From Schmidtea nova (lineage: Eukaryota): a stretch of 53,855 nt of DNA. The position numbers and the translations under genes were made by a program. The DNA lies in NCBI GenBank assembly GCA_044892505.1, contig CM097882.1, positions 524,716,146 to 524,770,000 on the forward strand. Direction: 5' to 3'. Below, in pieces: positions 11,830-45,689 of the stretch. Positions within the stretch are counted from its first letter, which is position 1. Every line of letters starts with the position of its first letter. The notes under the pieces are model-generated. The model was not told the DNA's origin. It did not search any database and saw nothing but the letters and a program-made list of their open reading frames with translations.

Positions 11830-11849
11830 TAACATTCTCACAATTTATT

Positions 11850-16059: not shown

Positions 16060-17136
16060 GGGTATTATTATTTCGTCACTTAAATTAGAAACATGGTCAC
16101 TTATTTTTTATTAAATTTGTCTCTTTAATTACATAAATGTGCTCGTCATTTAATTAAATTGTCTATTAAATTTATTGAATGATCACTAGGTCTAAATGGT
16201 CTCTTTAATTAAAAAAGTTGTCTCTTAATTTATTTATTTAGTCACTTATTTTAATTTAATGGTCTAATTTTGTGATTAACGATCACTTATTAATTTTGTC
16301 TTACAATATCCATTAGATAATTATTTTGAATAATTATTTTACATAAATGTGCTCGTCATTTAATTAAATTGTCTATTAAATTTATTGAATGATCACTAGG
16401 TCTAAATGGTCTCTTTAATTAAAAAAGTTGTCTCTTAATTTGTTTATTTAGTCACTTATTTTAATTTAATGGTCTAATTTTGTGATTAACGATCACTTAT
16501 TAATTTTGTCTTACAATATCCATTAGATAATTATTTTGAATAATTATTTTACATAAATGTGCTCGTCATTTAATTAAATTGTCTATTAAATTTATTGAAT
16601 GATCACTAGGTCTAAATGGTCTCTTTAATTAAAAAAGTTGTCTCTTAATTTGTTTATTTAGTCACTTATTTTAATTTAATGGTCTAATTTTGTGATTAAC
16701 GATCACTTATTAATTTTGTCTTACAATATCCATTAGATAATTATTTTGAAAGTGAGCAAACGTAGAAAACGTTAGTTGGCCAAATTAAACTCAAAAATGA
16801 TCATCTTCTGTTTATTTTACTCTAAAATGTTAACTTAAATTTTGTGGCTATGGTTTGTCATTTTTCTTATTAAAATTTTTTTTACATAAAAATTCAATTA
16901 AATTTCAAATAAACATTTTGAACAGCTTACATTTTTTTATTTAAGTGACTATTAAAGTAATTTAAGTGACCATATTTGGTAAATTTAAGTGCTCACTTAT
17001 ATTTAATTTTGAGTGATCAAGTTAGTAATTTAAGTGACCAAATCTGTAATTGAAGTGATCGCTTATGATTTATTAAAGTGATCAAAAATATTAAGTGATC
17101 ATTTATGTAATTTAAGTGAGTGGATAATCACCACCC
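16060..17136. mobile_element. Non-autonomous Mutator/foldback-like element
   Basis: Imperfect TIRs GGGTATTATTATTTCGTCACTTAAATTA and (reverse complement) GGGTGGTGATTATCCACTCACTTAAATTA. TTTTGGAAT is repeated on both flanks (16050-16058, 17137-17145). Many G(A/G)TCACTTA motifs on the left are mirrored by TAAGTGA(C/T)C on the right. Confidence 0.65.
16129..16750. repeat. Tandem repeat, about 3 x 210 bp, nearly identical units
   Basis: ACATAAATGTGCTCGTC recurs at 16131, 16341 and 16551. Confidence 0.95.
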
Positions 17137-17373: not shown

Positions 17374-18651
17374 CGTGGTGCGTTCAATAAGTACCCGACC
17401 AAAGGTAAAAAATGTAATGACAAATTTTAGTTTTTTTGTGTAAATAAATAAATAAATATAGGTATTAATTTCAGTTATTGTTTTATTTTATCAAACGCAT
17501 TAAAATTTTTATTGTGACATTTTGAATTTTAGTCGGTGTAATGATTTCAGACGTTGAGTATCGCAGCGTTATCAAGTTCTTTGTGTTGCAGAAGAAGACG
17601 TGCAGTGAAATCTACGATCTTTTGCAGTCAACTTACCTACATGACTCCCCATCTCTGACAACTGTTAAATATTGGGTCAGAGAGTTTAAAGGTGGTCGCA
17701 CCTCCGTTTTTGATCAAGAAAAATCAGGTCGGCCACCAGAAATTTTTCACACAGTTGATGAAAAATTGGAGAAGATTGTCCAAGAAGAGCGTCGAATCAC
17801 CATGAAAATGCTGTCAACGAAGCTCAACATCAGTTTTGGTACAGCCCACGCAAAATTGAAATACATGGGTATCAGAAAACTGTGCTCCAGATTCGTACCC
17901 CACTTCTTGACTGGTGAAATGATGCGAAACCGCTTGGAGTGCAGTCAGAACAACTTGAACCTGTGGGACCAGCATGGTGAGACTTTACTGGCAAATTTAA
18001 TAACGGAGGATGAAACCCCACTCAGTATGTATTTGCCGGAAACAAAGAGTGAGTCAGCAGAGTGGAAACTGCCTGGAGAGAAGCCATCTTTGAAGATGCG
18101 AACGGGGACAAGTCATGGGCGAGCGATGATGCTTTCCATTTTCTGGGATCATAAAGGTGTTATTCTCATTTATTTCGCGGATAAAGGCATCACCATCAAC
18201 GCTGCCTATTACAGCAAAGAATAGACGGAAGCAGAAGAATACGCCACTATGGTTTCTCCACGACAATGCGCCAGTGCACACAGCGGGCGTTTCTCGGGCC
18301 ACAATTGAAGGTGCTGGACTAGTGCTTGTGGATCATCCGCCGTACAGCCCAGATTTGGCACCAAGCAATTTTTACCTCTTTAGACACCTAAAGAAGCATT
18401 TGAGAGGCACCCAGTTTGGATCCAAAGACGATTTGAAGGTTGCCGTGGAGGATTTCTTCAATGCATGTCCCCGAGATTTCTTCAAAAATGCGTTTTCTGA
18501 GTTTATTATTCGTTGGCGGAAGTGTGTGGAGCGAAATGGACATTATGTTGAAAAATAATGCCTACATACGTTAAGCTTGTTGCGTTATAAAAATGGCCCA
18601 TTTTGGAATTCGTTTTCTTCGTCAGGTCGGGTACTTATTGAACGCACCACG
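17374..18651 (+). mobile_element. Full-length mariner (1,278 bp) with perfect 27-bp TIRs
   Basis: CGTGGTGCGTTCAATAAGTACCCGACC at both ends in inverted orientation, TA flanks. Confidence 0.95.
17541..18558 (+). pseudogene. Mariner DD34D transposase, frameshifted near 18220 and with the third Asp changed to Asn
   Basis: TEDET, HDNA, 34 residues, then YSPDLAPSNF. ORF split into 17541-18224 and a second frame ending at 18558. Confidence 0.9.
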
Positions 18652-27536: not shown

Positions 27537-28663
27537 TTGTTTATACTTCTTGCGTGGTCTCTACATATTATGTCCACTCTCGCTTCCAAATTAATGGGAT
27601 TCAGCTTTTGCCCAACAGTATGTTTGACTCAGAAATTTACTAAGTATTTTTCGTATGTCATTTATATAACTGGTTAATAAAAAAAATTTCATGACCTTCC
27701 TTTAGTAAAATTTGAAAAATTTTCCCAAAATTTTTCTTATTATAATTGGCAAGAATAAACTTTATTCCAATATCTTTTTTCGTGACCATCTTTTTGTAAA
27801 TTTTCAAAAATTTATCTTTGCACTTTTTTTTAATTTTAGCTTATACTTGATCGGAATTTTACTTATCGCTTTATGATTTATATTTATTTAACTTCACGTT
27901 AATATTTATGTTTTAAATCCCAATAAAAATTTATTGAAAATTTTGCCAAAGTTTGAATTAAGCATAAATCTTATTCCAATAAACAAACAATTACTGGCCT
28001 GACATGAATATCTCTGGTAACTAGAAAGTCGGTATCAAGTTTCTCCATGAAATCTCCACTAAGTCTGTACTCTATTTACTCTAGATACAAAAATGAGGAT
28101 GAAATCGATGGAAAGCACGGAAAAAATTACTTCCATTGAAATATTGAAATTGATAAATTTATTTTCGATTTTTCAAAATTTTGAAAATAAAACCGTCTAA
28201 TTGACAAAATTTCATCGATTGAAAAATATTTTAACTTTTTCTTGTTTTTTATGTTGTTTTTCAGAATTTTAAGAGTAATTACTTTTAGTGTTTTCCTCTT
28301 TCATCATTTCAATTTTTTTATTTTTTCCAGTTGGAGGTCTTGCAAAATAATAGCTTGTTTTGGTCGGAAAAAAGTTAAATAATTCTTTAGCAATATTATC
28401 AGAATGCCATTAAAACATTAAGATTATACGGCATTTTAATAATAGTTTTTTCTGCATAATAATTTTAGACTTGGGTTTCTCAAATTAGGTACGAGTAGGT
28501 AGATGTGAGTTCCATAAATCACTTTCAATTATACCCCCCAGTTTTCGACAAGTTTCGCGCGTTTGATTGATAATTTATCGAAATAGTATTCATTTTAAAG
28601 TGCAAATATATTTCAAAAAGTGCTATTATTGATTTTAAAGTGCTAAAAATTGCTAAGAAGTAG

Positions 28664-29789
28664 TGTTGGATGATGAAGGTAAGCCCATCAATACATTCCT
28701 CCTATCAGAAAATTATAGTGTGGGGGGCAACAAATACAGAGTGAACATTTATGCAGAGCCTGTCGATAAGACCAATATTCAAAAAGAAACAGAACCCAAT
28801 ATCAATCAGTACCCAGTGCACAATCAATCCAAGCACCAACCAGGATATCAACATCCATTTGATATTTGATTGACATTTGATATTTAATATTTGATCGACA
28901 TTTGATATTTAATATTTGATCGACATTTGATATTATTATTGGGAATGTTATTTCTTGTATATATTTCTAGTGTAAATATTTGACATTGGATATTATTATT
29001 TTAGTTGGGAATGCGATATATTAGTTTAGTTCTTTTAAATGTATAAAATTATTATTAATATTTATGTACTTTTTATTCTTTTAAATGTATATAATTTAAA
29101 AAATTATTATTAATATTTATGTACTTTTTAATGAAATATTTTATTATTTTAATTATACAGATATTAGAATCAACATAATTGTAGGAAATTATTTTAATTA
29201 TTTTGAAGCGGCAGCGAGTCAATATTAGAATCAACATAATTGTAGGAAATTATTTTAATTATTTTGAAGCGGCAGCGAGTCAACATTGTTCCAATAGCGA
29301 AATTATTTGAAATTATTTTAATTGTTGTAATTATTTCAACAACGAGTACGAAAAACTTTAGTATTTAAAGAAGGGAAAATTTCTAAAACTTGCCCACAAT
29401 TTTTGAAATTCAATTTCAATAAAATTTAGCGAAACAAACTTTCTCAAAGGGTAATCCTGAGAGAACTTAAAATATACGAACAGCACAAAAACGTTCAACA
29501 CGAAATTGTTATCGTTAAAATAAACATAATACATTCACTAAATAACAAGCACACAATAGGACACGCAAAAAATATCCTTTAAATAAAACAGTGTGAAAAT
29601 TTGAAAGCGTAATTGATAGTTTTTGATTTGAAAGTGTAATTGGTAACTTTTAGAGTAATTGAGAACTTTTGATTCTTAAATTTGGTAAATTTTATTATTG
29701 AATAAATTTTTCAAAAGACTTGATCTTATTTTTATATACGATAGTCTACACCAGTGCACGTTGAGATCTAAAAATCTTGGACCTCAACA
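28664..29789 (+). repeat. 5' LTR (1,126 bp)
   Basis: Direct repeat of 41513-42638. Internal 25-bp (28872-28934) and 2 x 61-bp (29161-29282) tandem repeats. Confidence 0.97.
29355..29425 (+). promoter_or_regulatory. Possible LTR TATA-like box and polyadenylation signal (U3/R region)
   Basis: TATTTAAA near 29362 and AATAAA near 29418; positional inference only. Confidence 0.3.
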
Positions 29790-29791
29790 TT

Positions 29792-29809
29792 TGGTGCCGC
29801 GAACCGGGA
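29792..29809 (+). promoter_or_regulatory. tRNA primer-binding site (best guess tRNA-Phe)
   Basis: TGGTGCCGCGAACCGGGA, 2 nt after the LTR. It begins with TGG (complement of CCA) and resembles invertebrate tRNA-Phe 3' ends. Confidence 0.8.
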
Positions 29810-30038
29810 CAATAAAATATCAGAATATCAATTGGGGGATAGGAATTGCGATCAGAGGGATATTGTAATATATATCGGGAAAATATATTTATCTAAATAT
29901 TATTGACCAAAACAGAAATTCAAAGATATACAAACATTTAAGGTTAACAATAACAAAATAGGTAAAAAGATAAAGAAAGTCATTATAGATAAGCCACCTG
30001 AAATATTGCACAAGTTGAGAAAAAAGATAATATACAAA

Positions 30039-33000
30039 ATGAGTAATAATAGTACAGGCAGCAGCAATAGTGGAAGTAACAGTAATACATACAACATAAG
30101 CAGCCATAATTTTATAAAAACATTACCAATAGAATCATATAAGGGAGACCCTGAAAAGTTCGACGACTTTTTTGCCGAAATCGCACAGTATGCAGAGGCT
30201 TGCGGATGGAAAACAAATGAATTAAAACAACGAATCCCATTATACTTAAAGGGATACGCATTACAGGCATACAATAATTTAGCATGTAAAGGCATTAATT
30301 ATCAAGAGTTAGTTACAAACCTTAGAAAAGAAATAGTAATAGATCGAGACTTACAAAAAATAAAATTTCAAAAATTTAGAAGTAGATACCAAGGAGCCAG
30401 AGAATCAGTAGGTGAATATATATACACGATAACAGAATTAGCAAAAAAGGCATTTGGTGCCGGAGATCACACTAGTAAATTAATTGAGGATCAGTTTTGG
30501 AACGGCATCCAAAAATACTTATACAAAGCATTAATTACAATTGAGTATGAAGACTTAAATGAGTTAGTTCAAAAGGCAAAACGCATTGAAGCAATACAAA
30601 GATATAGATTTAAACCAGAGGTAGATGCTGTAGAAGTTGAAAAACAACCCGAGGTAAAACCTGAGTTGAGAAATAAGGATGACAGTATTCCCTGGGAAGA
30701 AATGAAACAATTATACTTGAATTTTGTTAATAATAGAAGAAAATTTAGTCCTAATAGAAGCCAATCACCTGAAAACAGGGGAAGGTTTAATAGTCCAGGA
30801 AATAAAAATTTCGATAATAGAAATAGAAATAATTTTAAAGATAGCTATCAAAGAAACAATAATAGAGACAGTTTTAGAGACAATCGTTTTGATAGAGATA
30901 ATGATAGAGACAACAGAGATAATTTTAGAGATAGTCGTTCTGGTTATAACAGAAACAGTTACAGTGGATATAATAAAAATAATAGAGATAGTCGCTTCGA
31001 ATATAATAGAAGAGATAATAGATATAGAGATAATTCGAGAAATAGGCAAGATAGCCCAGTGAGGCGAAATACTTATAATAATGATGGTAGAGATAAAGTG
31101 AATTTTAATGGACAAATAAAATGTTATAATTGCCAAAAGTATGGCCACCTAGCAAAGGTATGTAATAAACCACGAGCAGATTCACCAATAAGAGTAAGAT
31201 TTAAAAATGAGCCTGAGATAAAACAAGTAAATAGTGCTGAGCTCGAATCAGCAAATAAAGAAATAAATATATTAAGAGAGGAACTAAAAGAATTTAAAAC
31301 TCAATATGGAAGACTTATTGAGAGAAAACTTGAAATGTCTATAAATGAATTTAGCACCTTTACAAATGAAGTAGATATTGATAATGATGAGTTAAAGGAA
31401 ATTAGAGAAGCAGATGAAATATTTCTTACAAAAGAAAATAGACAAAAAGAATTAATAGAGGAATTTAAAGAGGTATTGCATAAGCAACCGTTTGATGACA
31501 ATGAAACATTAAGAGTAATCAATAAAATACAGGTTAATGGGATTGATTTAGAGAGACTTAGAAATTTAATACCAATGATGGTAAAGAGACAAAATCTAAC
31601 GAGAGTATTTGAATTAGAAATAGAAATAAAGGAGATGCTGAAATGTTATGGAGAATATATAAGAAAAAATGAAAAATTGCATGAAACACTAAATGTAACG
31701 ATTGAATCAAATGATAATTATTTTTTTAGTATTAAACAAAAGATGCATCCTTGCACTAAAGTGAGCAAATTAAAACGAATGGTAAGAGCCAAATGGCCAG
31801 GAACCATAGGAGAGAAAGATGTAATAAAATTATATTTTAACGGAATAGAATTATTAAGTGATGAGTACTTAATCGATTATGGGATAAACCCAGTAAGTGA
31901 TAATATTGTGGTAGCCACAGTAGAAAAACAAATGATCAATGAAATAATGACGCCAGTACCGTCGGTTGAGTTGAGTATAAATGAAGAAAACGATTTTGAT
32001 AGATTATTTAGGCTATGGGATAAATCACCTAGCGAAACAAAGAAATCAGTAATGGATGAAGAAATTATATTTAAACCTATAGATGAAAAGTATAGTAACT
32101 TACAAGAAACAATAGAAAGAATAGCTGAGGAAGCAAAAACAAAAGATGCAGAAACATCAAAACGAGGTAGAGGAAGACCTCGAAAATCAGAAATAATAGA
32201 AAAATCGGAGAATAGGAAGACAGCAGAACGATTAAGAGAGATTGCAAATCAACATAAACATGAACAACCAGAGTATCAAGACGATAATAATGACGTAAAC
32301 AAAATAAAAGAAGTAATAAAAGCAATGAATATTAAGCTATTTCCAGAAACAAAGCCAACAGTACTTATTGAAAATATAACTGAAAGGATGATGTTAATTA
32401 AAAAGGATACTAAAGAACTAGCTACAGAGGAAGCAAATGAAAAAACAGTGTTAAAAATCATGTTTAATACAGGGATAGATAAAGATAAAATAATAACGGC
32501 CATGGCATACTTGGCCGCAAGATATAAAAAGCTCATAAAAGAAAATCCAAAAGAGCAATTAGAAAAAGTAGCAACAATGATGTTTAAAAGATTGAAAGTA
32601 GAGGCAATACCATGGATAAAAAAGAAAGGAGGATGGAAAGTATTATATGATAAAGATACGACGAATAAAGAGAGTGATACAGATGAGGTAATAAAACAAT
32701 TAATAAAGAAAGCAACAGTAAAACCAAAGACAGAGAGTAAATCGATAACCTCCATAGTAATAGTCATTATCACTTTGTTATTAGATTTAATCAAGGGAGG
32801 CAATGCAATGGTAGCATATGATTGTCAAAATCCAAAGTGGGGACAAAAATACTCACTGCTAGATGTTGAAAATTGCCCTGAAGCAAATCCAACTAAATTA
32901 ATCATGTCAGAGCCTCAAATATTCCATGTTTATCAAGAATCAGACTTTATTCATACAGAGGCCAAAGAGTGCATAGTAAAGTATCAGGAGGAAGCATATA

Positions 33001-36000
33001 TATGTCATGTTGGGGCAAGAACAGTGTTAAAACCTACGTGGACACCCGAAGCAGTAATATTGTCACCAATAGAGTGTGAAGATGCATTTAAAACAAAGAA
33101 AGTAAAATATAGCGGTCATAAAGGAATAGAATTAGAAGCAAGGATAGGGGCAAAAATGAGACAAGATGTAAATGTCGTGGGATGGACATCAAAAGGAGGA
33201 TATTGTGAAGGAGGAGAATATACAATATGGGGCGAAAAACTGAGTAATGTTGTAGTAAGGAGACACTACATGGTAGAACTGAGAAAGTTCAAAGCATCCT
33301 TCGACAGCAGCTCAAAGAAAATGATGATATACAAATTTTGTACATTAGAAGAATCTTATTGCGATACAGGAGAATCAATGCTAATATACAAAATAGATAA
33401 ATACGATTGTCAGTTAACAAAATTAAAATCATTAAAATTTAGGGAAATCAAAGGAAAACAGTTCACAGAAGTAGACTCAAAAAGGGTGAGAGATCAAAAA
33501 AGGAAAACAACAATTGTACAAGAAAAAGATACACCAACAATATATATGTCAGAATCTGAAAACGAAGCAATGAGGTTTGTTAGTAAAAGGAAAAGTGTAA
33601 AATGTGGTAAGGAAATAATACAAACTAATTATGAAGGGATATACATAAGCAAAGAGGAAGTCAAAGATGCAAAACAAAAAGTAAATAAATTCGACGTCAA
33701 ACTTGCATCATACTTCAACAATAAAATCGATTTTTTCTATCATAACCAACTAGTACAATTAGATAAAGTATATCAATCAACAATTATGAGCGATTGCAAA
33801 CTCAACAGAGAAATATTGAGGACAAAAATGGCAGTGGCGGTAACAAACCCAGATTTAATGGCACCAATAATCTTCTCAGAAGAAGGAACATTTGCAAGGA
33901 TAGTAGGAGAAGTGATACAGACATTTCAATGTAAACCTGTTAGTGTATCGTTAGCAACAAATAATCAGTGCACTAATGAATTACCGGTAATATATAAAGG
34001 AGAAAGGGTATACCTTCAACCAATTACTAGAATATTAACAGAAAAAACATATATACCGAGAAAAATAGAAAAATGCACTAACCTATTAGACCCATTATAC
34101 AAAATAAATGACGAAATGTGGATATCTATGTCAGATAGAAAAGAGGCAATGAAACCACTCAAATTAGAACTCATAGAGCTAGAAAAAAGATTAGAGTTTA
34201 AAGAAATCAACGATATGGACAGTAATGGTATATATACGAGAGAAGCTATAGAAAGTGCAAGAAAACACATGCTATTTCCAAACGAAAAAGAAAGAGTACT
34301 TTCAATAATGGTTAACAGAGTTATCGAAGGAAGTTACGGAGGAAATTACAACTTTGATGTGTTATTATCAAAAGAATACTTCAAAAAAGTAGCATATAAA
34401 GTACTATATAGCATATGGGGATACTTTGCAGTCCTTGGAAACATGTTTTCTACAATCTTAGGTATATATTATACGGTTGCATTACTAAAAATGATATGTT
34501 CTTCTCTAGTATCACTGAGACAGCTAAAACAAGTATTTGGAAATTCATATAAATTATTAGCATGTTTGTGCCCATTTATAGCTAAATATCTTATTACGGC
34601 GAAACACGACAAGGAAATACGTTTAATAAAAGTCCAAAGGAATGAAGAAAGGCAATTACTGGTAGATGATGAAAACGATGAGGAAATAATTAAAGCGCAT
34701 ATATCACATGAAGGAAATGTACCACAACAAGGACTATATGAGAACCAAAGAGAACAACTAAAAGAGCTACAAGAAAATATAGAAATCAAAATTCCTAGAG
34801 AAAACAAGAATTGTCACTGTGAACCTAAAAAGATATATGGTTGTTATAGCTTAGAAGTCGAAACAATGGAACGATTAGATGCAGCAAACGAAGCAAGACC
34901 AAGACTTAGAATAATTATAAACAATATAATCATAAATGCATTAGTAGATACAGGAGCAGCAACATCCTTAATTAGAGAAGATCAACTGACAGATGATCAA
35001 AAAAGAAATATTATGAGCACAACGGATAAAGTAGTATCGTTATCAGCACATCGTATTCCACTAAAGGGAGACATAGAACTAATAGTCGAAACACCAGAAC
35101 AGGTAATAAACCACATATTTAAAGTGGTGCAAGAATGTAATAGCATATGTATATTGGGAATCGATATACTCAACAAGTTAGAAAATTGCATTATAGATTT
35201 AACAGATAATACGATAAAGAGAAAAGCAATTAAACATAAATCCAAGTTCACAGAAGTTGTTGCATTAGAAGCATTTGAATTGGAATATGAATGCGATCAT
35301 ATAATTCCCTTAAAAGTTAACATCAAAAGTGAGGACACTTTTATTTTTGAGCCAGAAACGGCAATTATACAAAATCAGAATATAATGCTAACCAATGAAT
35401 GCGTAATTCCGAGAAAGGGAATAATACCATTGAGAATAGCAAATTATGAAAAAAGTAATGTTAAAATACACAAAGGTACGAAATTGGGAAAATTATTCAA
35501 AGGTGAATTAGAAAAAACGTACGAAGTCAGTGAAATAAGCGTGATGAATAATAACGGCAAGGGAGTAGTCGAACCTAGTAAGATAAATAATATAAAATCA
35601 TATGACAAAGTAAAAATTAATAATGAATACTTAACAATAACACAACAAGCACAACTACAAACATTGATAGATAAATATAGTGATGTTTTTGCAAAACACG
35701 AATTTGATCTAGGAGATACCGATATAATCAAACATGTAATAGATACAGGTAATGCGAGACCAATAAAACAAAGACCATACAGCGTACCATACAAGTTAAG
35801 AGAGGAAATAAAACGACAAATCAAAGAACTAAACGATGCAGGTGTAATAAAACAGAGTTTTTCACAGTGGGCATCACCCATTGTACCCGTTAAAAAGAAA
35901 GACGGAGAAATAAGAATGTGCATTGACTATCGTAAATTAAATGATGTAACAGTAAAAGACTCATACCCATTCCCAAAAGCACAAGAGCAATACGATAAAC

Positions 36001-39000
36001 TTAGGGATGCTAAGTATTTTTCAGTTATTGACGCAAATAAGGGATATGTGCAAATTCAAATGGAAGAAGGGGATGCGGAAAAAACAGCATTTGTTATCGA
36101 GGATGGTTTATATGAGTACACACGATTACCTTTCGGGTTAACTAACGCACCAGCTACATTTCAGCGCCTAATGAACACAATATTAGTAAATGTACAACAT
36201 TGCGCAGTTTACATGGATGATATACTAATATCATCAAAAACATTTGAGGAACACTTAAAAGATATAACAAATGTACTCGAGAGACTAAGAAAAGCAAAAA
36301 TTAAAATTAAACCAACTAAGTGTAAATGGGCAGAACCTTCGGCGTTATTTCTAGGGCATATAGTTACAGTAGAAGGGATAAAACCAAATCCAGAAAAAAT
36401 AGAAGTTGTAAAGAAATTCCCAATACCAAAAACAGTACAACAAGTACAAGGGTTTTTAGGTCTAACAGGGTACTATCGTAAATTCATACAAGATTATGCA
36501 AAGATAGCATCACCGATAATAGAACTAACAAAGGGAATTAGAACAAAAGGAGAATGCAAAAATGTGTTAATAGTACAAGAAATTAACAGCAAAGTTAACA
36601 AGATACAAAAGAAGTGGACAAAGGAACACCAAGAAGCATTCAATAAACTAAAAGAAAGATTGATAACAGCACCAGTGTTAAGATATCCAGATTTCGAAAA
36701 ACAGTTTATAGTAATGACGGATGCCAGCGGGAAAGCCGTAGGAGCAGTCTTAGGCCAAGAAGAAGAAAAAGGGAAAGATTACGTAATAGCATATGCCAGT
36801 AAAACATTAAAAGGAGCACAGCTGAGGTATTCAACAATAGAAAAAGAATGTTACGCAATAGTATTCGCCCTAAAACAATTCAAACCATACATATATGGGA
36901 CTGAAGTGATAATAAGAACTGACCATAAACCATTAGAAGGCTTATGGAAACATAAAGATACATCAAGTAGATTACTTAAATGGGCAATGAAAATACAAGA
37001 CATGCACCTAAAAATTATATATAAACCAGGTAGAATAAATAAAAACGCAGATGCACTATCAAGAATACCAGAATTAGGAGCACTTGAAATATTTGCACTA
37101 GTAGCAGAAAAACCAATCGATATATATGAGGAACAGATGAAAGACCCAGAGATCAGTAAAGTAAAAAATGAAATCAGAAAAGAAAACAATTCAAAGTATA
37201 AAATATCAAAGAAATTAGTAGTAATAGAAGATTTCAATGGTAAGCAACTAATAGTAGTACCTCAGAAATTAAGACAAATACTCCTACTACAATATCACGA
37301 TGGAGCATTAGGAGGTCACTTATCATCTAGAAAGACAGCAAGTAGATTATTACAAAAATATTACTGGGAAGAATTAAAGAAAGATGTTAAGAGATGGTGT
37401 AACGCGTGTACAATATGTGCAACAAGAAAAAATACAGGTACAAAAACAAAAGCGCCGTTACATCCCATTCCAGCAACGACATCACCAATGGAACTATGTG
37501 CAATGGATTTTCTATGTAAATTACCTACTACAATTAATGGGAATAAACATATACTAGTATTTAGTGATTATTTTACTAGATGGGCAGAAGCATTTCCAAC
37601 AAAAGACGAAACAGCAGAAACAGTTGCTAAATTGCTTATAGAAAAAATTATTTTCAAGATAGGCACACCCAAAAGATTATTAACAGATAAAGGAACAAAT
37701 TTTACTAGTGAATTAATAAAACGAGTAGCTAATATTTTTAACATGCAAAAGATCAACACAACAGCGTATCACCCTCAAACGGATGGACTAGTAGAAAGAT
37801 TTAATGGGACATTACTAAGCAGACTAGCTGTTTTTGTAGGAAAAAATCAAAATGATTGGGACGAATACATAAGTCAATGCACATACATTCATAATATCAC
37901 TCCAAACGAAACAACAGGGAATTCACCGTATTATTTAATGTTTTTAAGAGAACCAGCAACACCAATAGATACAATATTTGAACCTCGAGTATCACAATAT
38001 TTAGATGCACCAGATTATGTCACATTAATGCAGGAAAAACTGCAAGAAGTGTATAAAGTAGCCAATCTAAAAGTCAAATATAGACAAGAACAGTACAAAG
38101 CCGACTACGACAAAAATAGTAAACCACACAACTTTAAAGTAGGTGATAAGGTTAGACTTATGTCACCACAAGTAGGAAAGGGAAAGACAACAAAACTAGC
38201 AAGACCATATAAAGGTCCATATGAGGTAGTAAAAGTAATAAATGAGAATTTACATTTACAAAAGCATAAAAACGAGGATCCAATAGTAGTACATGTCAAC
38301 AGATGCAAGTTGGCGGAAGCCGAGGTCACGATAGATAAACCTCACAAGTATAATCTAAGATCTCATAACAAACTAATAATATCGGCTATCTTCTTAACAA
38401 TCATAACAATTGTTGGCTCAACCGAAACAATAGAATTTGACAAAGTATTAATAAAAATATCAACAAACGAAGTTAGAGCATTTATCATAAATAGAGGAGT
38501 AATTGATTTATACATGCAAACAACGAATGGGAAAAACCCAAAGATGATAAAAGGAAAAGACGACAGAACAACCAACGAAATCGAAAGAGGAAACTATATT
38601 AATTTCACAAAACTAACACCTAATACAATATACAAAATCTGCATACAGAGAAACACAGATACAACAACATGGAGATGCAAAAAAATAAAAACAGAACAAT
38701 TACCCAAGAATATAACAAAAAACCATAACATAACAAAAACACTCGATAGAATAAAAAGCACAACAACGACATCAGATAATATACTAAATACCACACCACA
38801 TACAAACGAAATAACAACAAGCACTGGAATAGCCAAATTCCAAAAACAATACAATGCCAAAAAACAAAAACAAGAACCTATCAAAATAAGGCAAGGAAGA
38901 CCAATAGTGATACATAACTTAGAGGAACTACAAGCATTTCGTAAAGAGGATAAAAAGCCACATTGGCCTTATTATGTCATCACAACATCAATAATATCAT

Positions 39001-39155
39001 TAGTAGTTTTAGCTTTAATAACTAGCGTACAAATTTATAAAAAGTACAAGTGGAAAAGGCAGCGGTATCGGAGCCGACTGGTCAGAAATGTACCAGGGCA
39101 TTTCCATTTGGGCAAATATATACCAGGTGAATATACAAAATCCACATTGGTATAA
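30039..39155 (+). CDS. Single Gag-accessory-Env-Pol-FN3 polyprotein (open from 30006; first ATG at 30039)
   Basis: More than 9 kb uninterrupted ORF; domains are listed separately. Confidence 0.95.
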   Translation: MSNNSTGSSNSGSNSNTYNISSHNFIKTLPIESYKGDPEKFDDFFAEIAQYAEACGWKTNELKQRIPLYLKGYALQAYNNLACKGINYQELVTNLRKEIVIDRDLQKIKFQKFRSRYQGARESVGEYIYTITELAKKAFGAGDHTSKLIEDQFWNGIQKYLYKALITIEYEDLNELVQKAKRIEAIQRYRFKPEVDAVEVEKQPEVKPELRNKDDSIPWEEMKQLYLNFVNNRRKFSPNRSQSPENRGRFNSPGNKNFDNRNRNNFKDSYQRNNNRDSFRDNRFDRDNDRDNRDNFRDSRSGYNRNSYSGYNKNNRDSRFEYNRRDNRYRDNSRNRQDSPVRRNTYNNDGRDKVNFNGQIKCYNCQKYGHLAKVCNKPRADSPIRVRFKNEPEIKQVNSAELESANKEINILREELKEFKTQYGRLIERKLEMSINEFSTFTNEVDIDNDELKEIREADEIFLTKENRQKELIEEFKEVLHKQPFDDNETLRVINKIQVNGIDLERLRNLIPMMVKRQNLTRVFELEIEIKEMLKCYGEYIRKNEKLHETLNVTIESNDNYFFSIKQKMHPCTKVSKLKRMVRAKWPGTIGEKDVIKLYFNGIELLSDEYLIDYGINPVSDNIVVATVEKQMINEIMTPVPSVELSINEENDFDRLFRLWDKSPSETKKSVMDEEIIFKPIDEKYSNLQETIERIAEEAKTKDAETSKRGRGRPRKSEIIEKSENRKTAERLREIANQHKHEQPEYQDDNNDVNKIKEVIKAMNIKLFPETKPTVLIENITERMMLIKKDTKELATEEANEKTVLKIMFNTGIDKDKIITAMAYLAARYKKLIKENPKEQLEKVATMMFKRLKVEAIPWIKKKGGWKVLYDKDTTNKESDTDEVIKQLIKKATVKPKTESKSITSIVIVIITLLLDLIKGGNAMVAYDCQNPKWGQKYSLLDVENCPEANPTKLIMSEPQIFHVYQESDFIHTEAKECIVKYQEEAYICHVGARTVLKPTWTPEAVILSPIECEDAFKTKKVKYSGHKGIELEARIGAKMRQDVNVVGWTSKGGYCEGGEYTIWGEKLSNVVVRRHYMVELRKFKASFDSSSKKMMIYKFCTLEESYCDTGESMLIYKIDKYDCQLTKLKSLKFREIKGKQFTEVDSKRVRDQKRKTTIVQEKDTPTIYMSESENEAMRFVSKRKSVKCGKEIIQTNYEGIYISKEEVKDAKQKVNKFDVKLASYFNNKIDFFYHNQLVQLDKVYQSTIMSDCKLNREILRTKMAVAVTNPDLMAPIIFSEEGTFARIVGEVIQTFQCKPVSVSLATNNQCTNELPVIYKGERVYLQPITRILTEKTYIPRKIEKCTNLLDPLYKINDEMWISMSDRKEAMKPLKLELIELEKRLEFKEINDMDSNGIYTREAIESARKHMLFPNEKERVLSIMVNRVIEGSYGGNYNFDVLLSKEYFKKVAYKVLYSIWGYFAVLGNMFSTILGIYYTVALLKMICSSLVSLRQLKQVFGNSYKLLACLCPFIAKYLITAKHDKEIRLIKVQRNEERQLLVDDENDEEIIKAHISHEGNVPQQGLYENQREQLKELQENIEIKIPRENKNCHCEPKKIYGCYSLEVETMERLDAANEARPRLRIIINNIIINALVDTGAATSLIREDQLTDDQKRNIMSTTDKVVSLSAHRIPLKGDIELIVETPEQVINHIFKVVQECNSICILGIDILNKLENCIIDLTDNTIKRKAIKHKSKFTEVVALEAFELEYECDHIIPLKVNIKSEDTFIFEPETAIIQNQNIMLTNECVIPRKGIIPLRIANYEKSNVKIHKGTKLGKLFKGELEKTYEVSEISVMNNNGKGVVEPSKINNIKSYDKVKINNEYLTITQQAQLQTLIDKYSDVFAKHEFDLGDTDIIKHVIDTGNARPIKQRPYSVPYKLREEIKRQIKELNDAGVIKQSFSQWASPIVPVKKKDGEIRMCIDYRKLNDVTVKDSYPFPKAQEQYDKLRDAKYFSVIDANKGYVQIQMEEGDAEKTAFVIEDGLYEYTRLPFGLTNAPATFQRLMNTILVNVQHCAVYMDDILISSKTFEEHLKDITNVLERLRKAKIKIKPTKCKWAEPSALFLGHIVTVEGIKPNPEKIEVVKKFPIPKTVQQVQGFLGLTGYYRKFIQDYAKIASPIIELTKGIRTKGECKNVLIVQEINSKVNKIQKKWTKEHQEAFNKLKERLITAPVLRYPDFEKQFIVMTDASGKAVGAVLGQEEEKGKDYVIAYASKTLKGAQLRYSTIEKECYAIVFALKQFKPYIYGTEVIIRTDHKPLEGLWKHKDTSSRLLKWAMKIQDMHLKIIYKPGRINKNADALSRIPELGALEIFALVAEKPIDIYEEQMKDPEISKVKNEIRKENNSKYKISKKLVVIEDFNGKQLIVVPQKLRQILLLQYHDGALGGHLSSRKTASRLLQKYYWEELKKDVKRWCNACTICATRKNTGTKTKAPLHPIPATTSPMELCAMDFLCKLPTTINGNKHILVFSDYFTRWAEAFPTKDETAETVAKLLIEKIIFKIGTPKRLLTDKGTNFTSELIKRVANIFNMQKINTTAYHPQTDGLVERFNGTLLSRLAVFVGKNQNDWDEYISQCTYIHNITPNETTGNSPYYLMFLREPATPIDTIFEPRVSQYLDAPDYVTLMQEKLQEVYKVANLKVKYRQEQYKADYDKNSKPHNFKVGDKVRLMSPQVGKGKTTKLARPYKGPYEVVKVINENLHLQKHKNEDPIVVHVNRCKLAEAEVTIDKPHKYNLRSHNKLIISAIFLTIITIVGSTETIEFDKVLIKISTNEVRAFIINRGVIDLYMQTTNGKNPKMIKGKDDRTTNEIERGNYINFTKLTPNTIYKICIQRNTDTTTWRCKKIKTEQLPKNITKNHNITKTLDRIKSTTTTSDNILNTTPHTNEITTSTGIAKFQKQYNAKKQKQEPIKIRQGRPIVIHNLEELQAFRKEDKKPHWPYYVITTSIISLVVLALITSVQIYKKYKWKRQRYRSRLVRNVPGHFHLGKYIPGEYTKSTLV
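30129..31163 (+). other. Gag: capsid-like region, R/D/N-rich linker and CCHC zinc knuckle
   Basis: IESYKGDPEKFDDFF..LYLKGYALQAY..QGARESVGEY (retrotransposon gag pattern); CYNCQKYGHLAKVC at 31122-31163. Confidence 0.9.
31689..31925 (+). other. Ubiquitin-like domain within the polyprotein
   Basis: TKVSKLKRMV..IKLYFNGIELLSDEYLIDYGI aligns with ubiquitin [30 protein letters not shown]. Confidence 0.7.
32160..32186 (+). other. AT-hook motif
   Basis: KRGRGRPRK. Confidence 0.75.
32290..32650 (+). other. Bcl-2-like domain
   Basis: BH1-like MFNTGIDKDKIITAMAY (compare LFRDGVNWGRIVAFF) and BH2-like IPWIKKKGGWKVLY (compare TWIQDNGGWDAFVELY) at Bcl-2-like spacing, followed by a hydrophobic tail. Confidence 0.6.
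32742..34600 (+). other. Internal signal peptide plus chuvirus-like envelope/fusion glycoprotein with C-terminal TM
   Basis: SITSIVIVIITLLLDLIKGGNA/MVAYDC..YSLLDVENC, 14 ectodomain Cys, LPVIYKGERVYLQPITRIL, GIYTREAIE, and hydrophobic segments at 34400-34590. Confidence 0.8.
34900..35210 (+). other. Retropepsin aspartic protease
   Basis: INALVDTGAATSLI and ICILGIDIL. Confidence 0.92.
35680..37075 (+). other. Reverse transcriptase and RNase H
   Basis: LPFGLTNAPATFQR and YMDD (36210-36221); RNase H TDASGKAVGAVL, EKECYAIV and TDHKPL. Confidence 0.97.
37290..38320 (+). other. Integrase (HHCC, DD35E, GPY/F)
   Basis: YHDGALGGH..CNACTIC, AMDF, TDKGTNF, GLVERFN and YKGPYEV. Confidence 0.96.
38365..39155 (+). 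other. C-terminal type I membrane protein: signal peptide, FN3-like domain, Thr-rich stalk, TM, basic tail
   Basis: LIISAIFLTIITIVGS; KLTPNTIYKICIQ (FN3 LxPxTxY motif); sequons NFT, NIT x2 and NTT; TM WPYYVITTSIISLVVLALITSVQIY; tail KKYKWKRQRYRSR. Confidence 0.7.
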
Positions 39156-39618
39156 TACGTTTTGGTCAATAATAATAATTAAAATCATATATATTCGTAT
39201 TTATATAGCGTATAAGGTTAAACCGACAATACGCCTTAAACAAAAAACTTTATCCTTTATTTTTAGAAAAGATTGCACGAGCAAAACAAAGCAAGTTCTA
39301 ACAAACTCCGAAAACCCAATCAATCTCGTGAATTCTACACACCAATCAAATCATTGCGACAACCATTCAAAAATCTCAAGAAATACAATCATCTCTTTTT
39401 TAAACTATCACAACAAACAATCAAAAAACCCTACTAATCATCTCCATACAAAATACCCAATCAATCTCGTCAATTCTATAAACCAATCGAATCGTTACGA
39501 CAATTACCCATATATCTCAATATATTCAATTATATCTCTGTTAAACTGTCAAAATCCTAGTAATCATCTCTCAAATCAATATCTCAAGAAATCAATTCAA
39601 TACCAATCAAAAACAAAG

Positions 39619-41718
39619 ATGAATCAAAATCAACCTCATTTCAATCACTCAAGAACCTACCAGAAATACACTTGTTTTATAAACAAACTCAACATGAGTT
39701 TTTACAAAAATCTACAGAACAAGATATGTACGGATGGAACCCCAATTACAATTCGCAGTTTCCCAAATCAAATATGCATCCCAAATGACATGAAAGTCGA
39801 AATAGAAGAACGGGAAATGCATCTGATAAAATTCAATGAGGCCCGAAGAGTGAAACTCAGAGAGCTTATTGGAACCTTCGACAAATACCAAAACGTCGAC
39901 AAAGAAGTTGCAGAAAACAAGAGAATCCCTCACAGACTAATATTCCACATGACAAAAACAGAAGTTGCAATAAGTCAAAATAAAATCCCGTTAATTGTCA
40001 CAAGCAACTGTTCAGCAGTTATCAAGTTAATAAGAAAAGACAGAAGCATGTCAAACGATTTCAATGAGCTGACAGTGCAGATGAACAACCTACCATGTGT
40101 GATAGCAATCGAAGTGCTATATATCCCGACAATCCCAAATCCGTTCATAAAATTAAACCCAATACATTCAATCCTACAAATAAATGAAGATATGATCAAT
40201 CAGAAGATATCATTCACGAATCAAGAGTTAACGACAGAAGAAAGGCATTCATTAACTGTAATGGTGGATATAAAAGTAGTACAAGATATAAACAAAAATC
40301 TCAGACCAGTGGAAATTTGTATCAGAAGCAGAAAAGGAGCAATTCTGTATAACAAATTCATCACCCCAAGAACGAAAGTAGAAAAATTCTACACGGAAAA
40401 AACTAAAGCTACAAAAGAAAACATAATTGGAAATGAAGACGAATATAAAGCCTTAAATGAAATTCGAAACATTCTCTATGGAAAGATCATAATTGGATTC
40501 AACATCATAGATAAGTTAAAACTATTGACGATAGATCTGGACAACATTATGGGCATAAGAGAAATGGCACAGGATCGATTCATGTGTTCTTTTGTAAAAA
40601 ACGTGGCCCCACCAAAAATAAAAATATCAAATTTGGCTTACCAGGTAATCAACTACCATAAAAGTTAACATAAAGATAAAAAGTTAAATGATATATTGAG
40701 ACAACCAGAACCATTCTCAACAAAGATCACCACAATGCTATTAAAAGTTATCTACGATATCACAGAAAATAAATGGGAAGAAGTTGTCAAATGGGATTCC
40801 GCAACACTTCTTAAAAAGAAACAAGTAAATGGAGAAGAACAACTAGAAACAATATTCGAAAACGAAACAGAGAGCGAAGCAGAAGGTGAGATAGAAAGTG
40901 AATATGAAGATGGAGAAGGCATGGAGCCGTCCCATAGAGAATCAACAAAAACCAATCATTACAAACCAAAAAAGTCATTCATGGAAGAGCTCATGGACAG
41001 TGACGACGATGAACTCATGATCATAAAAGAAGAAATACCACTTATCGCCCCAACTAGAGAAATCAAAGCAGAACCAAAAATTCAAAATATTCTATATGAA
41101 AGAATGGACGAATGTGACATAGATGATGAATATTTCTCAGCAGATGAAAACATAGAAGAACCTTCAACCAGCAGTAACGACATCAAAATGGAAGAAGATA
41201 GTGAAGAACCATCAACAAGTAATAAATACAACATAATGGAAGAGGATATCGGACCAGAACCAAACGTTGAAATGTTAGCCGACTGGACAGAACCAGAAGA
41301 ATTAGACTTCATAATAGACAAAGACAAAAAGTATGTCTCAGAAAAAGATCTCTGCACTCATTTTGGAAGACAAATTGAGCACGAGGAGACGATAAACCTT
41401 GCGATAAAAAATGGATTTCGAAAAACAACAATTCAAATAAAAGAGAAAAGAATTGATTTAATATTGTGTGACAAGGGTAATGAGGACATTACTTTGACGG
41501 CCCGGGGAGGAATGTTGGATGATGAAGGTAAGCCCATCAATACATTCCTCCTATCAGAAAATTATAGTGTGGGGGGCAACAAATACAGAGTGAACATTTA
41601 TGCAGAGCCTGTCGATAAGACCAATATTCAAAAAGAAACAGAACCCAATATCAATCAGTACCCAGTGCACAATCAATCCAAGCACCAACCAGGATATCAA
41701 CATCCATTTGATATTTGA
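39619..41718 (+). CDS. Accessory ORF2: unknown N-terminal domain, DEDDh (ISG20/REX4-like) pseudo-exonuclease, acidic region; one in-frame TAA at 40666-40668
   Basis: ORFs 39088-40668 and 40696-41718 are in the same frame. VMVDIKVV..PVEICIRSRKGAILYNKFITP..EIRNILYGKIIIGFNI follows the ISG20/REX4 pattern. Start codon uncertain (39619 or 39694). Confidence 0.6.
41504..41512 (+). promoter_or_regulatory. Polypurine tract
   Basis: GGGGAGGAA immediately before the 3' LTR TG. Confidence 0.85.
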
Positions 41719-42638
41719 TTGACATTTGATATTTAATATTTGATCGACATTTGATATTTAATATTTGATCGACATTTGATATTATTATTGGGAATGTTAT
41801 TTCTTGTATATATTTCTAGTGTAAATATTTGACATTGGATATTATTATTTTAGTTGGGAATGCGATATATTAGTTTAGTTCTTTTAAATGTATAAAATTA
41901 TTATTAATATTTATGTACTTTTTATTCTTTTAAATGTATATAATTTAAAAAATTATTATTAATATTTATGTACTTTTTAATGAAATATTTTATTATTTTA
42001 ATTATACAGATATTAGAATCAACATAATTGTAGGAAATTATTTTAATTATTTTGAAGCGGCAGCGAGTCAATATTAGAATCAACATAATTGTAGGAAATT
42101 ATTTTAATTATTTTGAAGCGGCAGCGAGTCAACATTGTTCCAATAGCGAAATTATTTGAAATTATTTTAATTGTTGTAATTATTTCAACAACGAGTACGA
42201 AAAACTTTAGTATTTAAAGAAGGGAAAATTTCTAAAACTTGCCCACAATTTTTGAAATTCAATTTCAATAAAATTTAGCGAAACAAACTTTCTCAAAGGG
42301 TAATCCTGAGAGAACTTAAAATATACGAACAGCACAAAAACGTTCAACACGAAATTGTTATCGTTAAAATAAACATAATACATTCACTAAATAACAAGCA
42401 CACAATAGGACACGCAAAAAATATCCTTTAAATAAAACAGTGTGAAAATTTGAAAGCGTAATTGATAGTTTTTGATTTGAAAGTGTAATTGGTAACTTTT
42501 AGAGTAATTGAGAACTTTTGATTCTTAAATTTGGTAAATTTTATTATTGAATAAATTTTTCAAAAGACTTGATCTTATTTTTATATACGATAGTCTACAC
42601 CAGTGCACGTTGAGATCTAAAAATCTTGGACCTCAACA
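41513..42638 (+). repeat. 3' LTR (1,126 bp)
   Basis: Direct repeat of the 5' LTR; no mismatch noticed by eye. Confidence 0.97.
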
Positions 42639-42644
42639 GTAGCA

Positions 42645-43262: not shown

Positions 43263-45689
43263 AATCCATATTGCCATATGGCAACGCTAAGAAGTTATAC
43301 TGCTATTAGGATGTCAATTGTTAACATGATTGAAGTTATTGCAGTTTCTCCAATAATTCCACAATATCAGCAAAAATAATAAAAAGGCCATGAAAATTAG
43401 ATTTTAGCAATTTATTATGGAAATAAATTTTATTGTGATTTATGAGAATCTTCCAAACAATCGATACAAATACCAATTTTACATTTTTTACACATTGTTC
43501 TCATTATGGATTTACAGTTTTTGCCAGCATCGTCATTTTTTGTTATCCGGTATTTTTCCTACGAAAAATGATCTCTTCCATCTGATCTTACTTCTTCTGA
43601 TATCATTTTCATGATGGAGCTTTTCGGGGATAAAGATCTCCCTGCACCTTTTACCGCTTTTCCATATTGGCAAAGTTAAGTTAGTACAATTTCTCTTCGA
43701 AATCAAAATAGTGGAATTTCAAAACTTCCAAATTTCTGTTTAGGCATCCATGCATTATGAATGCATATATTTATTAGCCATGAAAAAAAGAGGTCAATAC
43801 CATATTTATTGCGTTTGTTTATACGATTTTTGGCAACATTTTCTTCCATTCTATCGATTCCACCCATGTATTTATTATATTCCCCCATACCTTATGGTCG
43901 TAACACTCCGATAATGTTTTATGTGCTAGAGAGTATCTTTTGACGGTCAAAAGTTGCGCAACGCTATTGCAATTCGAAACAATTGAGACATTATAATTAT
44001 CTACCCATTTCACAACAACTACTGCATCGTCTTTACAAATTGTATACTGATAAACTCCTCTATCATTCCTTTTAAATTCTTTATTTGAAGGTAGAATATT
44101 ATTTTTGAGAATTCTGTTCTCTCTTATTGTTTCCGTTGCGTGGTGTATTCGTTTTTTTGAATAACATAATAAATTCAGGTTGGTAAATAAATTATCAAAA
44201 TATAAATGATAGGGCAATGACTGCTTGTTATTGGGCAAAGAATTCAGCATCGTGAGTAAAGAAGTAACAGTTTTCCTAAAACTTTTTAAGTATCTATCGT
44301 TTGAAAATAAATTTCGAAATCCACAAGATATCCATTTACAGTGTTTAAACACCATACTTTATAGGCTAACCTAATCGGTTGTCCATGAATGTATTGCTTG
44401 CATCCGTGTTTACCGAAATACTTCACAATTTATTCGTAAAATGACAAATTCTTTTCGGGAATATAGTGTTTGTGAATGTTCGTTTTTACCATATTCCCCA
44501 AAGGTCGTAATTTTCCCATTTTGTCGCATTTATTTGGATTGGAGTGATCGCAAAAATGAAAAAAAGTCTTAAAATCTGTTCAAATCGATTTCTCCGCATA
44601 CTTCATTACTAGCTCATTGCCAATATCGTTATTCTTATCCCAATAAATTCTCTTTCCTGACAATTTATCATTAACGCTGAGAATCAATATTGTCACGAAA
44701 ATTTTAATTTCTTTGGAAGTTATTGCAGGATCTACACAATTATAAAATTGCGCGTATTCGTTTGAAGAACTCGTTAAAAAATAAATAATTTCTTCACTGA
44801 GAATTAATTCAAAGATATTTGAATAAGATGTGCTTGTAAAATCATGAACATGGACTGTAAAATTATCTTACACTGTAGCTTCAAATTGTTCTTCGATCCA
44901 TGCCCTTTCTTCATTTTCCTTCTAGGCAAATTCTTTTTCTATTCGATGAGTCCTTACAGCTTTTGCTTCTGATAACAACTGTATCCCATTCGAATTATCA
45001 TACTCACGCTCAACTTCATCTCCCAGAATCTTCATCCATAAGAACGGCTACCTCGAGTGGAGATAAAAAAACTGCCTTTATTGGTTTGTCGAAGTTTTCA
45101 TTTCTTTCCTCGTTTTCTGAAATCATGTCTAATGCTTTTATGGCAGTAAATCCATCCGCAAATCGAATACCCATGCTTCTAAAATAAAATTTTTTTACAA
45201 TATAAAATTGAATGGTCATAATAAATGATCCTAAATCTAAATAATATGTAATGATGGCGAAGTAATATTATTCTTTCGTTTTAGAAATAGCGTTGGGAAT
45301 AATTTAGCGTTGCCATTGGCAACACAAAGAATTCCGTCATGTTTCCTAAAAAAGTATAGTGGAGAGTAAAACTAATAACATTCATTTATAGTATGAAGGA
45401 TATAGAATATAATACTTAAGAATAAATTATTATTATTATTATTGCGAAATATGAGAAATAGTTACTTACCTCGCGTAATCATACATATCGCCGTCCATCA
45501 TAAAAAACACTAAAATAAACTAACTATTATTTCTCACAAAACTTCATTCGAACACATTTAACTGATTGTTACATCTCGACTGAGATTTATGTACATGCAA
45601 ACACTTCCCGGCACGATTTGCTTAAACAAAAAAGTGCAAAGTTGCAAATGACGATTCAATGCGCTATGATACCAAATGACAACAATTGG
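43263..45689 (-). mobile_element. Degenerate piggyBac (PGBD3-like) transposon; ends approximate
   Basis: Minus-strand YHLYFDNLFTN, TIRENR, VVVKWVDNYNV and YNKYMGGIDRM. Inverted TTGCCATATGGCAACGCTAA motifs at 43271 and 45304. TTAA at 45690. Confidence 0.75.

Follow-up and report, generated by a model that had tools for sequence, protein, structure and literature searches.

The window analysed here, a stretch of 53,855 nucleotides of Schmidtea nova DNA (contig CM097882.1 of assembly GCA_044892505.1), contains an intact LTR element of approximately 14 kb at positions 28664-42638. Leaving aside the region directly behind the integrase (IN), which is described below, the features of this element are:

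28660-28663: target-site duplication GTAG, directly before the 5' LTR
28664-29789, + strand: 5' LTR (TG...CA, 1,126 bp), with 0 mismatches to the 3' LTR over 1,126 bp
29792-29809, + strand: primer-binding site-like stretch (TGG...) right after the 5' LTR
29907-39155, + strand: single polyprotein ORF of 3,082 codons from stop to stop, first Met at 30039
30039-31166, + strand: Gag region with a single CCHC zinc knuckle at its end (PF00098, aa 404-420; E 0.0013, short of the cut-off)
31692-31946, + strand: ubiquitin/SUMO-like domain (PF11976, E 0.004, below the cut-off)
32439-32636, + strand: Bcl-2-like domain (PF00452, E 3.7e-7, 31.1 bits against a cut-off of 31.4)
32733-32819, + strand: internal signal 1, ahead of G (hydropathy 2.12)
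32757-34694, + strand: chuvirus/gB-type (class III) fusion glycoprotein G (PF24664, E 6e-88, aa 951-1596)
34431-34517, + strand: transmembrane helix (TM) of G, from hydropathy
34890-38366, + strand: protease (PR), reverse transcriptase (RT), RNase H (RH) and IN, ending GPY...HKYNLRSH (PF00077, PF00078, PF17917/17919, PF17921, PF00665)
39022-41718, + strand: downstream frame that contains a region like RNase T/DEDDh exonucleases; a stop at 40666-40668 divides it into 548 and 349 codons
41513-42638, + strand: 3' LTR, followed by GTAG at 42639-42642

Because the LTRs are identical and are accompanied by the target-site duplication and the primer-binding site-like stretch, the insertion must be very recent. 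The LTR carries a 61-bp tandem duplication (29161-29287), and the end of the downstream frame extends about 200 bases into it (41513-41718, counterpart in the other LTR 28664-28869). The exonuclease-like assignment of this frame comes from the atlas (0.92), with no Pfam match. A homologue in the second element family introduced below (L053:7387-8835) is 26-27% identical; DxE, GHDL and HxxxxD motifs can be read in that homologue, and the window version appears degenerate. Just 3' of the polyprotein stop lies a 103-bp direct repeat (39311-39554, 79%). The remainder of the window contains DNA transposon fragments, with transposase fragments (hAT-like, two mariner-like, one piggyBac/IS4-like) at 7897-9759, 11239-11844, 17526-18224 and 43819-44358, and three near-identical 210-bp tandem copies at 16129-16758.

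The TG...CA LTRs, a duplication of the 4-6 bp class, the TGG after the 5' LTR and, from Pfam domains and motif, the order PR-RT-RH-IN with a GPY/F motif are those of Ty3/gypsy (Metaviridae) elements. One protease match was found by Pfam. The N-terminal part of Gag resembles that of three related proteins (P0004, P0005 and P0007, see below), and a region similar to the ubiquitin/SUMO-like domain is present in P0004-P0007; the segment holding this domain and the Bcl-2-like domain (31692-32636) is under purifying selection, and an AT-hook-like KRGRGRPRK also lies between Gag and G. The earlier note had placed the probable fusogen elsewhere than at the usual env position, and rightly so, as G lies between gag and pol and has the class III domain, signal and TM of a gB-type ENV.

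Elements of this kind are known. Chary and Hayashi (eLife 2026, PMC13524379) describe GAG-ENV-POL elements with an ENV of the HSV gB type from flatworms, nematodes and bryozoans; those of platyhelminths include Smed_errantivirus_3, with which our element shares the Gypsy-order Pol, the class III G between gag and pol, a multicopy state and a length of about 14 kb, as well as long identical runs in domains I-II of G when the two are compared by eye, a likeness that suggests a planarian host. The giant planarian LTR elements Burro/GYPSM1 (>30 kb, with a 4,873-aa ORF; Arkhipova and Yushenova, GBE 2019, PMC6431247), as far as the text portion goes, likewise have one long polyprotein with Gag, Ubi2/SUMO-like and BCL-2-like domains, an in-frame env between gag and pol, PR-RT-RH-IN and accessory ORFs. 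Our element also combines a ubiquitin-like domain, a Bcl-2-like domain (both matches lying below the curated cut-offs) and an in-frame env in one polyprotein, but the MATH, BIR, ankyrin and dUTPase-like domains given for Burro in that text have no Pfam match in it. Given a span of 28664-42638 rather than >30 kb and the lack of MATH, BIR and ankyrin cargo, it is Burro-like and not Burro. Troyka was ruled out as its identity by different termini and no env, on the text consulted in PMC12440569. We class it as a compact errantivirus of the GAG-ENV-POL kind with Burro-like features, a known element type, and as a young, many-copy, virus-like retrotransposon.

Anakin, a BEL/Pao element with a chuvirus G, was reportedly described by Dezordi in 2020. 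Like ours it is an LTR element with a Jingchuvirales-like glycoprotein, it differs in being BEL/Pao, and the relevant passages of PMC10084718 mention no second glycoprotein; nematode ENV-POL elements (Sacco 2022, as cited in the text of PMC13524379) also pair an LTR element with such a glycoprotein. In the post-pol position, LTR elements of bdelloid rotifers carry an ORF3 for a short TM-bearing protein or a DEDDy exonuclease (Rodriguez 2017, PMC5408684), comparable in kind to what follows pol in our element; according to the text portion of that paper the rotifer ORF3s are separate and replace env, whereas the TM protein of our element continues the IN chain, bears a fibronectin type III (FN3) head and occurs alongside a fusogen.

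A predicted membrane protein module behind the integrase

According to the earlier note, the frame continues past the typical pol terminus into a complete type I membrane protein. We found that it indeed passes HKYNLRSH (38343-38366) and adds 262 residues from 38367, within the same 3,082-codon ORF, in the following order:

38367-38420, + strand: internal signal 2, with a basic n-region and a hydrophobic core (Kyte-Doolittle peak 1.88 at 38361-38432)
38421-38702, + strand: predicted FN3 domain, about 95 residues of beta type that contain LTPNTIY; an NFT sequon and a pair of Cys residues in it are conserved
38703-38963, + strand: stalk, Thr-rich and then Lys/Gln-rich, variable in length, with 1-3 sequons
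38964-39041, + strand: transmembrane helix (Kyte-Doolittle 2.22), then a basic stop-transfer run
39042-39155, + strand: cytosolic tail ending STLV, a class I PDZ-binding-like [S/T]-x-V, then the stop

The hydropathy peaks support the signal-like stretch and the TM helix that the note had read, and together with the sequons they fit a type I membrane glycoprotein whose insertion and cleavage are predicted. Small residues occupy the predicted -3/-1 positions of signal 2, and the cleavage site is presumably near 38420, where the von Heijne rule would place it. Two details of the earlier description need correcting. Four sequons exist, as it had claimed for the stalk, but only three of them (38709, 38727 and 38787 in the window copy, 1 to 3 among copies) are in the stalk, the fourth (NFT at 38601) lying inside the FN3 domain. 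Only some 40 residues of the stalk are Thr/Ser-rich (40-43%) and the remainder is Lys/Gln-rich, which makes the term mucin too strong.

The FN3-like domain had been proposed from an LxPxTxY motif, here LTPNTIY. AlphaFold2 modelling of 38418-38702 with 16 close sequences predicted an all-beta sandwich with the seven strands of an FN3 domain (mean pLDDT 76.8, pTM 0.69; pLDDT of the five models 38-77, two of them above 75). The best Foldseek match was an NCAM2 FN3 domain (E 4.2e-4) and the best VIA match an sDscam FNIII domain (Z 8.4, rmsd 2.8, 80 aligned), the top VIA ranks being sDscam, IFNAR2 D2 (Z 8.3), fibronectin and NCAM2 at Z 8.1-8.4. FN3 domains make up most of both lists, at identities of 10-18%, and a Z of 8.4 would only just exceed the range usual for a common beta-sandwich. 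An Ig/FN3-type fold is thus supported by prediction, as the note had expected, but no particular relative is, given such identities and a modest Z. By sequence, PF00041 (fn3), which is marked by a Trp in strand B, a Tyr in strand C and LxPxTxY, gave no Pfam match to the module, a PDB search returned nothing below E 0.02, and a profile including the relatives matched this LxPxTxY motif in multi-FN3 proteins. The structural matches in BFVD were FN3-type proteins of phages and giant viruses, with no retroelement among them.

The note had also suggested capture from a host cell-surface gene. FNDC5/irisin, FNDC9, NCAM2, sDscam and contactins share with the module the succession of signal, FN3, stalk, TM and short tail, as well as the fold, and the FN3 fold makes a capture plausible; they differ in that, at 10-18% identity, homology at the sequence level is lacking, and in that the module sits inside a retroelement polyprotein. 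No donor emerged from homologue, profile or PDB sequence searches: stand-alone homologues of the tail were absent among 402 candidates of 144-459 aa and, as weaker evidence, among 7,998 candidates of 486-2,000 aa. A profile search of 1.84 billion representatives returned 81 matches. Two of them, P0003 and P0009, belong to tails of elements; queries with gag, G, pol or tail picked out none of the rest, and those seven that were inspected are long proteins, in most of which LxPxTxY motifs recur. The capture is therefore untraceable to any one host gene and, if it took place, plausibly old.

Conservation among copies and relatives

In a search of genome G000, 146 matches were scored among 1,047 candidates (75-100% identical), 29 of them, by hand count, in open frames of >3,000 codons with no flagged stop. 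Exact patterns, which detect only the closer subfamilies, matched the fused IN-module junction 119 times, and 0 times the integrase-end motif with any base but A after it, a pattern that would have caught a stop. At 52 loci chosen by tail match (51 distinct places, window included) the junction was contiguous and in frame in all 52, so the segment is present in other copies as the earlier note required, and the tail exceeded 250 residues in 48. The NFT sequon and both Cys residues of the FN3 pair were kept in 47/48 full-length tails.

Pairwise dN/dS values (Nei-Gojobori, window against ten divergent copies, the pairs not being independent) were 0.23-0.47 for FN3, 0.30-0.81 for the TM and 0-0.51 for the cytosolic tail, all of which are under purifying selection, and 0.61-1.25, about 1, for the stalk, the sequence of which is nearly neutral. 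By comparison, IN gave 0.01-0.14 and G 0.01-0.04 in the two full-length copies that have diverged most. The module has 21 distinct indels, each a multiple of three and each within the stalk, whereas 27/73 are in frame in the 500 bases after the stop, a comparison biased by the choice of loci with full-length matches. In loci L041-L052 the synonymous distance to the window varied from 0 to 0.6 between domains within one copy, and since it is so uneven along the ORF of single copies, recombination between subfamilies is evidently frequent.

A neutral, functionless read-through into captured or random sequence has in its favour the near-neutral stalk and the premature tail stops in 4/52 loci. Against it stand the dN/dS below 1 in FN3, TM and tail, seen in two families, the in-frame indels, subject to the bias just given, and the retention of the layout across lineages whose G proteins are only 35-40% identical; such an origin is largely refuted and barely credible. 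The junction and the module are confirmed not to be due to chance and, judged by selection, the module is functional.

With G as query, a search among long proteins returned six relatives, P0002-P0007, which were 35-39% identical. P0002-P0005 each end, after IN, in a signal, an ectodomain, a Thr-rich spacer, a TM and a tail, and P0004 and P0005 have approximately three ectodomain repeats as judged by eye; P0006 is without the module and P0007 stops before RT. An extra protease-like domain sits between IN and the signal in the relatives that have the module, and in P0002-P0006 the retropepsin-like domains number two or three, with one behind G and another behind IN. Genome G000 also contains a second family (L053-L062), abundant and G-bearing, with open frames of about 3,400 codons, which is 38-40% identical to the window's element in G and 54-55% in RT. 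The layout of signal, ectodomain and TM is present in 10/10 of its loci, with an ectodomain of 320 residues, longer than the window's; between its two subfamilies the ectodomain shows a dN of 0.19-0.31 at a dS of 1.3-1.8, and is hence under purifying selection. In a tree of RT-RH-IN, four deep lineages were sampled and the module is found in each: it is clade-wide across all four. A tail of the P0009 type was not found in G000 with the query used for it.

The ectodomain sequences of different lineages show no significant likeness. Compared with shuffled sequences, the similarity of the window ectodomain gave 3/500 for P0003 and 30/500 for P0005, and was not above shuffles for P0002 and P0004; profile-profile comparison between lineage ectodomains with hhalign gave no signal (probability 0.1-0.2%), and the model of the second-family ectodomain was discarded (pLDDT 32). 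Because the ectodomains can barely be aligned and that model failed, homology and an FN3 fold in the relatives have their basis in the layout and in a partial motif resembling LxPxTxY; the modules probably share an FN3 origin.

The end of the module is conserved as well. [S/T]-x-V at the C-terminus is the signature of class I PDZ-binding proteins, and 47/48 full-length tails end in this way, with T-L-V, T-Q-V or T-S-V; elsewhere the ends are T-F-V (second family), T-T-V (P0004), T-A-V (P0009) and S-W-V (P0005), and the P0002/P0003 lineage is without one. Such ends therefore occur in 3/4 deep lineages, compared with 1.1% of tripeptides in these tails (p about 6e-6, for a motif noticed post hoc). 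The sequence is that of a putative class I PDZ ligand (C-terminal [S/T]-x-hydrophobic), and it argues for a C-terminus that would be free, cytosolic and bound by host scaffolds. The clade-wide module, the roughly three repeats of some relatives and this usual end had been overlooked in the earlier note.

Synthesis and possible roles of the module

The module occupies the position where env usually lies, and the earlier note had suggested that a spliced subgenomic RNA would express it. An RNA that is spliced or internally started, as for a canonical env, would make the fusion to IN incidental, and a Met is present inside signal 2 in 12/52 loci, all from older subfamilies and none with a long open frame. 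Our data do not bear this suggestion out. Among 23 AG sites at 38150-38360, none has a pyrimidine tract beyond background (the best fraction, 0.56, coincides with the 95th percentile for the ORF's ordinary YAG sites), Met is absent from the first 8 residues of signal 2 in 12/12 loci with a long open frame and from the signal of P0005, and no copy within reach of the exact patterns has a stop after the integrase-end motif. The module has neither a separate ORF with an acceptor nor a start of its own, and separate translation is very improbable. With no acceptor and no Met in intact copies, release by signal peptidase is the likelier route.

Signals before and TMs after both G and the module make the hydrophobic segments alternate, which is consistent with a four-pass topology. 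The polyprotein would cross the ER membrane at signal 1, at the TM of G, at signal 2 and at the TM of the module, leaving Gag cytosolic, G luminal, PR-RT-RH-IN cytosolic, FN3 and stalk luminal and the tail cytosolic. Signal peptidase would then free G and the FN3 protein, and the element protease would free Gag and the enzymes from the signal stubs; flavivirus and alphavirus polyproteins, which have a multi-pass ER topology with such processing, offer an analogy. Since the ORF has no frameshift or stop, G and the FN3 protein would be produced in equal numbers and in the same membrane. We consider this anatomy and processing route highly probable.

What the protein does is a matter on which we are more tentative. 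The reading that we favour, at somewhat less than even odds, is that the module, the conserved final block of the Gag-Env-Pol polyprotein, assists the class III fusogen G at cell contacts as its partner in attachment or adhesion. It would be excised as a second type I glycoprotein with an FN3 head, a flexible stalk, a TM and a PDZ-binding-like tail; the stalk would hold the head away from the membrane and the [S/T]-x-V end would link the protein to host PDZ scaffolds at junctions, which would concentrate G where cells touch and aid transfer to neighbouring or stem cells. By analogy, the fusogen hardly varies whereas the Ig-like head changes faster, and fusion/attachment pairs such as herpes gB/gD show the same contrast. 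Counting against this reading, baculovirus GP64 and rhabdovirus G are class III fusogens that bind and fuse unaided, and the dN/dS of FN3, being below 1, gives no sign of the diversifying selection expected of a receptor binder in an arms race.

The module might instead be an accessory surface protein that modulates the host and not an entry factor. It would imitate a host FN3 receptor, as a decoy or in a dominant-negative way, and so block superinfection, damp signalling or reroute a restriction factor via its PDZ-binding-like tail. Several host-type modules (Bcl-2-like, ubiquitin-like, exonuclease-like) are carried by the element; the layout of single FN3, stalk and TM resembles FNDC5/FNDC9-type proteins and cytokine-receptor domains, with atlas values of 0.87-0.88, below that tool's reliability line, and the IFNAR2 D2 match cited above; and the cytosolic tail is conserved. 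Nevertheless, no specific host paralogue to mimic was found, and production in a fixed one-to-one ratio to G and the structural proteins would better fit a component of the particle or budding site, which leaves the decoy a real but rather unlikely candidate.

An assembly role is unlikely, and a little more so. Signal 2 and the TM would tie Pol to the membrane of G and the tail would sort the assembly site, while FN3 and stalk would be a folded unit that keeps distance in the lumen or helps G to fold, and would bind nothing on target cells. The conservation of signal, TM and tail beside an ectodomain that ranges from one to about three repeats and cannot be aligned between lineages agrees with such a role, as does the nearly neutral stalk. 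Purifying selection on FN3, with its conserved Cys pair and sequon, speaks against a mere spacer, and the cleavable-looking end of signal 2 would part the luminal portion from IN.

A bolder form of the attachment reading, possible but on the unlikely side, would have the whole clade of invertebrate LTR elements use a two-glycoprotein envelope made from a four-pass polyprotein, in which a gB-type fusogen is paired with an FN3 adhesion mimic whose PDZ-binding tail sits at junctions, forming a synapse for spread into stem or germ cells. If true, this would be the attachment/fusion split of herpesviruses and paramyxoviruses in a retroelement, with processing in the style of flaviviruses.

The text of PMC13524379 and PMC6431247 reports no fibronectin-type or second membrane protein after IN, and in particular the text of PMC6431247 names no FN3 or TM module there for Burro. 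A literature search, which did not extend to Repbase reports and figures, returned no paper joining FN3 with such retroelements and, on PDZ, only unrelated titles. The element type is already known; its predicted second glycoprotein, conserved and ending in a PDZ-binding-like motif, seems not to have been described before.

Env-bearing LTR elements have been described as having a single envelope protein for both binding and fusion. If a second, conserved glycoprotein stands at the surface in a one-to-one ratio to a gB-type fusogen, it would supply the partner on which gB-like fusogens depend in herpesviruses. With the whole of Pol held between two predicted membrane anchors, it also becomes a testable question how RT and IN are released and enter the particle. 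At 262 aa the module is small, young copies are abundant, and the motif at the end of its tail is a direct handle on host partners. The second glycoprotein bears on whether Burro-like and GAG-ENV-POL elements are infectious and on how they move between cells.
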